A stretch of 14,996 nucleotides of DNA from a virus (Duplodnaviria; Heunggongvirae; Uroviricota; Caudoviricetes): the IMG/VR virus record IMGVR_UViG_2713896798_000009. One strand, given 5' to 3'. The notes below the pieces were generated by a model. It saw only the letters and a program-made list of their open reading frames with translations. It was not told the DNA's origin and did not search any database. Position 1 is the stretch's first letter, and every line of letters begins with the position of its first letter. The translations under genes were made by a program, and so were the position numbers. This document shows positions 7,791 to 8,168 of this stretch, one piece after another.

Positions 7791-7814
7791 ACAAAAAGCC
7801 GGATTGCTCCGGCT
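7791..7814 (-). terminator. rho-independent terminator after the 74-aa gene
   Basis: Minus-strand stem agccgga/tccggcu with 4-nt loop followed by UUUUU; nearly identical to the hairpin at 8151-8168. Confidence 0.6.
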
Positions 7815-7824
7815 GTATGGGTGC

Positions 7825-8049
7825 TCAGTCCCTGATCCCTTTCAGAAATTCTATCAATGCATCTATCTGTTCAGGATTTACTGCCAGCATTTCACCGGAT
7901 AGAGCACATCTCACAAAACCATGCTGATCCTTTTCAATCAGTGCGCCCGTCTCCAGGAATGCGCGGTAATCATTGATGTTCATCGTCTCCATGTTGTCAG
8001 CATGGTATTTATCACGCTGTTTTAATATCTCATCAAATTTCATCGGCAT
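7825..8049 (-). CDS. hypothetical protein (74 aa), moron-like gene flanked by terminators
   Basis: ATG at 8049 (MPMKFDEILKQ...) with GAGG RBS about 9 nt upstream; sits between two near-identical terminators; looks AT-richer than neighbours by eye (not computed). Confidence 0.5.
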   Translation of the reverse strand: MPMKFDEILKQRDKYHADNMETMNINDYRAFLETGALIEKDQHGFVRCALSGEMLAVNPEQIDALIEFLKGIRD

Positions 8050-8143
8050 TGTTTTTTCCTCTGTTGTGTCTGTTTGTTTCAGATAGTAACTATGCCGGAC
8101 CGTGACGAAAAGCCGGTAATGCGCCATACCGTTTCAACTGGCG

Positions 8144-8168
8144 CAAAAAAAGCCGGATTTCTCCGGCT
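8144..8168 (-). terminator. rho-independent terminator ending the replication operon
   Basis: Minus-strand stem agccgga/tccggcu with loop gaaa followed by U6; twin of the 7791-7814 terminator. Confidence 0.6.

Follow-up and report, generated by a model that had tools for sequence, protein, structure and literature searches.

The DNA analysed here (the window, 14,996 nucleotides of IMG/VR virus record IMGVR_UViG_2713896798_000009) carries an open reading frame (ORF) of 74 amino acids between two nearly identical hairpins. This leads to the question of what kind of gene it is and how a terminator came to stand on either side of it. A preliminary description had read the arrangement as a moron-like accessory gene, independently transcribed, bracketed by twin terminators and acquired by recombination at the hairpin. 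The twin terminators were confirmed at 7797-7814 and 8151-8168 by a terminator scan, by folding and by a repeat search. The anatomy also proved to be as described, with the additions that everything lies on the minus strand and that the proximal hairpin ends the upstream gene perC. From perC to the capsid gene, the features are as follows.

8175-8447, minus strand: gene of a perC-family regulator (Pfam PerC, E = 1.3e-43; RefSeq), the last replication/regulation gene.
8147-8173, minus strand: proximal copy of a 27-nt repeat; its hairpin and U7 form the predicted intrinsic terminator of perC.
8168-8151, minus strand: proximal hairpin, AGCCGGAGAAATCCGGCT plus TTTTTTTGCGC (terminator scan).
8050-8146, minus strand: leader of the 74-aa ORF, 97 nt, with a weak terminator-like hairpin (8131-8114) and a GAGGA ribosome-binding site (8061-8057).
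8049-7825, minus strand: the 74-aa ORF, with ATG at 8049 and a TGA stop at 7827-7825; PHROG 1957.
7793-7819, minus strand: distal copy of the 27-nt repeat; its hairpin and U-tract form the predicted terminator of the cassette.
7814-7797, minus strand: distal hairpin, AGCCGGAGCAATCCGGCT plus TTTTGTAATT (terminator scan).
7770-7785, minus strand: conserved motif TTTGTAAATTATTTGT, with which the capsid-operon leader opens immediately past the distal hairpin.
7533-7769, minus strand: leader of the capsid (packaging) operon, with an inverted repeat and a terminator-like hairpin at the capsid ATG.
6375-7532, minus strand: HK97-type major capsid gene (RefSeq), the first gene of a 9-gene packaging module.

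In the terminator scan both hairpins have seven base pairs, five of them G-C, and a 4-nt loop, and each folds at -12.6 kcal/mol (z = -3.3 to -3.6 versus shuffles). The proximal hairpin reads AGCCGGA-GAAA-TCCGGCT and is followed by U7; the distal one reads AGCCGGA-GCAA-TCCGGCT and is followed by UUUUUGUAAUUUUUU. Both tetraloops are GNRA-like, and the tails on the minus strand are U7 or U5GUAAU6. A G+C-rich stem-loop leading directly into a U-tract, the sequence signature of an intrinsic terminator, is present at both sites, and both are predicted to be intrinsic (rho-independent) terminators. An Rfam search returned nothing in the window or the region. The 27-nt direct repeat that contains the hairpins is identical at 25 of 27 positions (93%), with a spacing of 354 bp. 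A 19-nt pattern with three mismatches allowed matched only these two sites in the whole window; since the expectation in shuffles was 0.01 and at least two matches occurred in none of 200 shuffles, the twin repeat is not due to chance.

The proximal hairpin follows the perC stop codon by 6 nt and the distal hairpin follows the stop of the 74-aa ORF by 10 nt. The same hairpin is found 3' of perC in islands that lack the cassette and before three different downstream modules. Because it is constant after perC in every context, it is best taken as perC's own terminator and not as private to the cassette, and the two hairpins read as copies of the predicted perC intrinsic terminator. In TW14359-type islands the homology to the window stops at the distal hairpin. 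In the lambda-like PICI type a close variant of the hairpin (GCCGGATTTCTCCGGCC in locus L022, 1232-1254) is met again as a third copy about 2.3 kb downstream, immediately beyond a hypothetical gene that follows the decoration gene; this third copy is also present in L024, L026 and others. One terminator sequence seems to have been reused at several module boundaries.

The ORF itself was then assessed as a coding sequence. Its GAGGA motif lies 7 nt ahead of the ATG. An alternative 100-aa reading from 8127 is also open, but the N-terminal MPxxFxE is kept among homologues of the 74-aa protein, which favours the shorter start. The leader is 95-97% identical among the EDL933, TW14359 and Shigella copies. 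The ORF shows a dN/dS of 0.09-0.24 across E. coli and Shigella copies, with 11 synonymous and 5 non-synonymous differences between the window and the Shigella ORF. Residues 1-74 match PHROG 1957 on profile positions 1-74 of 82 (E = 2.4e-41), a family with no function on record. A profile search of 1.84 billion cluster representatives yielded 113 family members, nearly all of 70-100 aa. The AlphaFold2 model, built on a 72-sequence alignment, has a pLDDT of 86 and predicts helices at residues 5-14 and 25-33, three short strands and a helix at 59-73 (alpha-alpha-beta3-alpha). The dN/dS, the PHROG match and the confident model together show that the ORF is a real gene under purifying selection. 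The RefSeq label "hypothetical protein" or "trigger factor" at this locus belongs to something else, a frameshifted 42-aa pseudo-ORF across the perC end and its terminator (window 8090-8218, minus strand; L006 9300-9415), and this annotation is almost certainly an artefact.

The description of the product as lacking a recognisable motif stood up. Pfam gave nothing above threshold for the 74-aa protein and 72 family members, NCBIfam gave no match to the protein, and PADLOC-DB v2 returned no family for the protein or for its 82-aa homologue. The predicted model found no match in BFVD with Foldseek at E <= 0.001, and a phage genome collection gave neither a DNA nor a tblastn match. The best hit of a PDB profile search (E 0.006 over 36 residues of a nicking endonuclease) was taken as chance. 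Structure prediction and remote homology search thus provided a confident model, no fold match and no homologue of known function.

The context of the gene is that of a capsid-forming phage-inducible chromosomal island (cf-PICI). Positions 7400-8700 of the window match E. coli FORC_028 with 100% identity; the island there disrupts tqsA. There the genes run in the order integrase, HTH regulator, icd-like gene, DUF4222 gene, primase, two small ORFs, ssb, perC and the 74-aa ORF, followed 3' by major capsid, HK97-type protease, portal, head closure, connector, HNH, P27-type TerS and TerL. In RefSeq the minus strand holds nearly all annotated island genes, including perC, the ORF and the capsid gene. 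The cassette therefore has a replication/regulation module (primase, ori, ssb, perC) on one side and the packaging operon on the other. Published criteria for cf-PICIs include the absence of tail and lysis genes and a size of about 10-18 kb (bioRxiv 10.1101/2025.02.11.637232); the RefSeq record identical over 7400-8700 has these properties, and the EDL933 island is organised in the same way. The window belongs to the EcCIEDL933 type of cf-PICI.

EcCIEDL933, the prototype from strain EDL933, was described by Alqurainy et al. (bioRxiv 10.1101/2022.09.08.507074) and He et al. (bioRxiv 10.1101/2025.02.11.637232). It shares the gene order of the window and has a cassette 98.1% identical between perC and capsid. 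Unlike the window's island in tqsA, it is integrated in the roxA-phoQ interval, its integrase context differs and the flanks are about 5% divergent; the window's island is its sister. The capsid gene of EcCIEDL933, "gene 1786", opens the 9-gene packaging module, each gene of which is required for normal transfer (bioRxiv 10.1101/2025.02.11.637232). With the range inferred from capsid being 1786, the module comprises genes 1786-1794 and the 74-aa ORF falls just outside it. Neither cf-PICI paper (bioRxiv 10.1101/2022.09.08.507074, 10.1101/2025.02.11.637232) describes the 74-aa ORF. The mutated "hypothetical gene 1792" is a different gene; by position from 1786 it is inferred to be the ORF between HNH and TerS.

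Two further observations concern the early module. Downstream of the primase gene, window positions 9477-9714 hold GGTGAACAG iterons clustered in both orientations, a probable PICI replication origin, and the distant cf-PICI L008 likewise has repeats of a similar core, GGTGAACA, past its primase. The perC homologue gives a weak score to the ANR anti-virulence regulator family (NF033650, E = 3.8e-4); a PICI PerC-like protein has been reported as a repressor of LEE, not an activator.

Comparison of related islands at this exact position revealed both occupied and empty alleles. The cassette is present in 539 of 5426 complete E. coli genomes (about 10%), many of them O157:H7 and other STEC-type strains. 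With a 1.3-kb query, one class of records matched in two pieces spanning about 947 versus 1301 bp; only perC, ssb and capsid are annotated in these records, and the shortfall equals the 354-bp spacing of the repeats. The empty islands are collinear, 352-354 bp shorter in the examples read, and keep one hairpin. In PCN033 (L002) and O157:H7 F8092B (L005), which have the HK97-type module, perC is followed by a single hairpin and then by the capsid leader. About 130 genomes are estimated to have perC, the same capsid leader and one hairpin; this number is an extrapolation from a junction-spanning query, in which 12 of 16 sampled rows covering at least 80% of the query were single-piece, applied to 172 genomes. 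The same alternation exists with a lambda-like capsid/decoration module, where TW14359 (L004) is occupied and JNEC-KY203 (L022) empty. A third module, with a ClpP-capsid fusion (L023), has perC and the hairpin, and the cassette is absent. The Shigella locus, the single one returned by a related-locus search with a narrow alignment, was considered as a third upstream context and turned out to be a deletion derivative with ssb and perC remnants.

A virome sample of 103 IMG/VR loci, retrieved by the hairpin sequence, gave the same picture. Counted by sequence context in the 103 loci, 14 islands with the HK97 leader are occupied and 21 have a single hairpin; for the lambda-like module the numbers are 19 and 27. 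A stricter tblastn tally of the first 80 loci gave 13 and 13 for the HK97 leader and 11 and 22 for the lambda-like module. The gap from perC to capsid in these loci is bimodal, about 645 versus 294 bp and 812 versus 448 bp, and the capsid leader is 95-97% identical with the cassette present or absent. Other islands hold different extra cargo at the same junction. The ORF also differs in base composition, with 42.7% G+C compared with 53.5% for perC, 58.4% for ssb, 50.7% for capsid and 50.4% for the whole window. As delimited by these alignments, the unit that is present or absent in collinear islands measures 354 bp and comprises the leader, the 74-aa ORF and one hairpin. Occupied and empty alleles in two capsid-module backgrounds bear out the claim of an accessory gene and support the view that it would be dispensable, variable cargo. 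The empty alleles are natural knock-outs of the gene.

Beyond the close relatives, four other satellite types sampled have divergent homologues (35-42% identity) in the same slot after the replication genes. The homologues read in their contexts are placed as follows.

L008: between the ori iterons and the capsid gene.
L127: after the RepA helicase and iterons, with two opposite-strand ORFs before the capsid operon.
L128: directly ahead of the capsid operon.
L130: after the helicase.
L012: after the primase, before a PhageMin_Tail gene.
L003 (E. coli LH50-c): a 37% identical homologue 45 bp after perC, with no terminator between them.

The position of the 74-aa gene thus appears to be ancient. 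The twin hairpins are absent from all six of these loci, which would make the duplication specific to the E. coli/Shigella perC lineage. Still more distant members (E about 1e-4 to 1e-9) occur in lambdoid prophages, on the opposite strand between lysis and terminase genes, and others adjoin an AIPR/Abi-like gene.

Several neighbours of the family are themselves of interest. In L009 (4580-8182), L010 and L011 an 86-aa member is flanked by an AIPR-domain (Abi-like) gene on one side and, on the other, by an overlapping 646-aa ORF that matches nothing in Pfam or PADLOC; the locus may be an uncharacterised multi-gene defence locus. In L003 an opposite-strand ORF of 157 aa (1949-2422, plus strand) fills the gap between the homologue and the capsid leader, and in L127 opposite-strand ORFs of 169 and 246 aa (6164-7470, minus strand in the locus) occupy the same gap. 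None of the three matches Pfam (the 157-aa ORF by a scan, the two L127 ORFs according to a precomputed table) or Tai, and the 157-aa ORF gave nothing in PADLOC. They are candidates for new cargo or defence genes in the same hotspot.

From the comparisons above, we consider it probable that the locus is an optional accessory-gene cassette, which in an EcCIEDL933-type cf-PICI fills the variable slot separating the replication/regulation module from the packaging operon. The other explanations differ from this reading in how the gene would be transcribed, what its product would do and how the cassette would move.

The transcription of the gene bears on the first of these. Neither a scan nor a manual search found a sigma-70-like promoter of at least 8/12 between the proximal terminator and the ORF ATG. 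The best match ahead of the ORF is 7/12 (TTTTCG-17-TACTAT), and the earlier claim that the gene is independently transcribed was not sustained. A moron in the strict sense would have its own promoter, constitutive or dependent on an activator, in 8050-8146, would be expressed in the quiescent island and would serve phage defence, anti-defence or fitness of the host. Much of what is seen agrees with this, namely patchy presence in collinear relatives, a boundary set by terminators including one directly downstream of the gene, and low, deviant G+C. The distant homologues in the lambdoid lysis/terminase moron slot and beside an AIPR/Abi-like gene point the same way, and the slot has been described as an immune hotspot (bioRxiv 10.1101/2025.02.11.637232; PMC11364771). 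However, besides the missing promoter match, 45 bp without a terminator separate perC from the homologue in L003, suggesting that the early operon and the homologue are co-transcribed, and the gene is co-oriented with the main island transcription in 5 of 5 satellite contexts. The protein also has no PADLOC match and is unrelated to Tai or Ati: hhalign of the 72-sequence profile gave a probability of 0.1% against TaiEcA (phi80 orf63) and AtiEcA (phi80 orf64), and blastp of the 74-aa protein against the two found no match. A strict moron is therefore rather unlikely.

The downstream edge of the slot has features of its own. L003 and the divergent cf-PICI L127 (7500-7515) share the motif TTTGTAAATTATTTGT without a mismatch, and L128 (637-652) and L130 (3658-3673) have it with two. 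The motif is a candidate for an operator or promoter element in cf-PICI packaging operons and would mark the downstream edge of the cargo slot. Within the leader, a 17-nt inverted repeat (7624-7640 / 7655-7671, 94% complementary, 14-nt spacer) could be an RNA stem or a protein-binding palindrome. A hairpin GUCCUGG...CCAGGAC at 7570-7541 (-14.1 kcal/mol, z = -3.4) is followed by U8 abutting the capsid ATG at 7532 and buries the sole AGGA, an arrangement that suggests attenuation or translational control of the packaging operon. No sigma-70 promoter was seen upstream of the capsid gene, and a manual search of both leaders gave 7/12 at best. The two cf-PICI papers (bioRxiv 10.1101/2022.09.08.507074, 10.1101/2025.02.11.637232) give no account of how these islands control their capsid operon.

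These features raise the possibility that the 74-aa protein is a life-cycle regulator which modulates RNA polymerase or an activator and so switches or times the packaging operon, for example by overcoming the leader terminators. In L008, L127, L128 and the window, four cf-PICI lineages, the gene is found with ori/rep on one side and the capsid operon on the other, and in three of them it directly adjoins that operon; such a fixed position in distant cf-PICIs could reflect a life-cycle role and not cargo. The fusion of one family member to the alpha C-terminal domain of RNA polymerase fits this, as do the capsid operon without a visible sigma-70 promoter and its leader with the conserved motif and a terminator-like hairpin and U8 at the ATG. 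Yet the same capsid leader and operon do without the gene in more than 100 E. coli genomes and in about half of the sampled virome islands, and the gene also precedes unrelated modules (lambda-like capsid/decoration, PhageMin_Tail, a 261-aa ORF). The protein is acidic with no DNA-binding fold, and the published 9-gene packaging module, on the inferred numbering 1786-1794, excludes it. A regulator of this kind is accordingly judged unlikely, and the reading as an optional accessory-gene cassette is retained.

What the product might do is best approached through its family. The 74-aa protein is small and acidic (pI 4.9), and so is the family as a whole, with a median pI of 5.0, 65 of 72 members below 6 and none above 8. 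That the acidity is so uniform speaks against DNA binding and in favour of a role in binding proteins. The member P0128 is the one fused to the RNA-polymerase alpha C-terminal domain (PF03118, E = 4.6e-14), and another has an N-terminal CxxC...CxxC, a possible zinc ribbon as judged by eye. On the strength of charge, size and one fusion, the protein is probably a small protein-binding modulator. An anti-defence or helper/host-directed role has about an even chance, whereas a role in the life cycle or in the timing of transcription is possible but clearly less probable. A bolder proposal is that PHROG 1957 and its distant relatives form a new class of small acidic factors that dock on the host transcription machinery. 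We regard this as a long shot; if it were true, the factors would serve satellites and lambdoid phages in shifting the timing of late or packaging transcription, or in weakening some function of the host or helper, and the twin terminators would be a built-in attenuator that sets the dose of the factor.

The way in which the cassette comes and goes was examined in matched pairs of occupied and empty islands. In one pair (L042 occupied, L082 empty) the perC side is 100% and the leader 97.7% identical, and in the other (L068 occupied, L034 empty) the two flanks are 98.7% and 99.2% identical. The crossover lies within CTCCGGCTGT in the first pair, whereas that of the second is further right and follows TGTATGG. 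In L082 the single hairpin combines the loop (G) of the distal copy with the lineage-specific right flank of the proximal copy (TGTTGATTAGC...), and several more chimeric single-hairpin haplotypes were seen in the sequence-context count of IMG/VR loci. Chimeric single hairpins with varying crossovers identify the hairpins as recombination junctions, and different crossover points in a short repeat argue for repeated homologous or slippage events and against one site-specific reaction. A site-specific integron-like cassette, with hairpins recognised by a dedicated recombinase, would suit a promoterless small ORF excised precisely from between two imperfect palindromes, but is highly improbable: the crossover varies by lineage (within the 3' arm versus several bases past the hairpin), the hairpin is just 18 nt and is followed by a U-tract as in a terminator, the same hairpin follows perC in every context, and the sole recombinase annotated in RefSeq is the island integrase, with no integron integrase.

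Of the earlier claim of acquisition by recombination at the hairpin, the recombination is upheld by the chimeric junctions and matched pairs, whereas a recent acquisition finds no support, since divergent homologues hold the same slot in distant satellites. Each empty allele carries the private variants of its matching occupied lineage, which makes recurrent loss simpler than gain. An old resident gene, repeatedly deleted between the twin hairpins, would fit the haplotypes better than a recent acquisition, and from these haplotypes we infer that the indel is a loss. As an alternative, co-resident islands may have exchanged sequence at the hairpins, which would leave the same pattern.

For the accessory cassette we propose the following course. 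After induction of the island, RNA polymerase would reach the ORF by reading through the perC terminator or by starting at an activator-dependent promoter. The two terminators would act as successive attenuators that insulate the capsid operon, and the packaging operon would have its own regulated start downstream of the cassette. The protein would bind another protein, be it a component of the helper phage, of host defence or of transcription, and the gene would be dispensable for capsid formation and replication. At the twin hairpins, recombination or slippage could delete it, or co-resident islands could exchange it.

The finding overturns nothing known; it adds an uncharacterised cargo gene to a known slot of a known satellite. 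Its interest lies in the setting: gene transfer by cf-PICIs is widespread and was recognised only recently, and the cassette is found exactly where, in the prototype island, the early module meets the packaging operon. The 74-aa gene is a short, well-defined candidate for an accessory, anti-defence or regulatory function, and the cassette offers a clean natural example of a duplicated terminator serving as a break-and-join point for modular exchange or gene loss in satellites.

Among known systems, the phage morons are close in anatomy. In the concept of Hendrix and colleagues, morons are promoter-gene-terminator units between conserved genes. The cassette resembles them in being delimited by terminators, in its deviating G+C and in its variable presence between conserved modules; it differs in lacking a recognisable promoter of its own and in holding a long-standing syntenic position in satellites, which makes it no sporadic insertion. 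For the junctions, a close parallel is deletion between short direct repeats that contain hairpins, which takes place by replication slippage or short-homology recombination. The likeness here consists in 27-nt repeats 354 bp apart, one chimeric copy left behind and variable crossovers. In position, the cassette belongs to the accessory/immune hotspot of PICIs. On both sides of the cf-PICI packaging operon the sequence varies and is "expected to encode immune systems" (bioRxiv 10.1101/2025.02.11.637232), and the accessory region next to pri has been described with Tai systems (He et al. 2024, Nat Commun, PMC11364771). The known occupants of this hotspot are Tai proteins of about 200 aa, to which the 74-aa protein is unrelated (hhalign probability < 1%). 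The 74-aa cassette nevertheless lies in the same slot as described in these two reports (PMC11364771; He et al. 2025 preprint), where L003 and L127 have other, opposite-strand ORFs.
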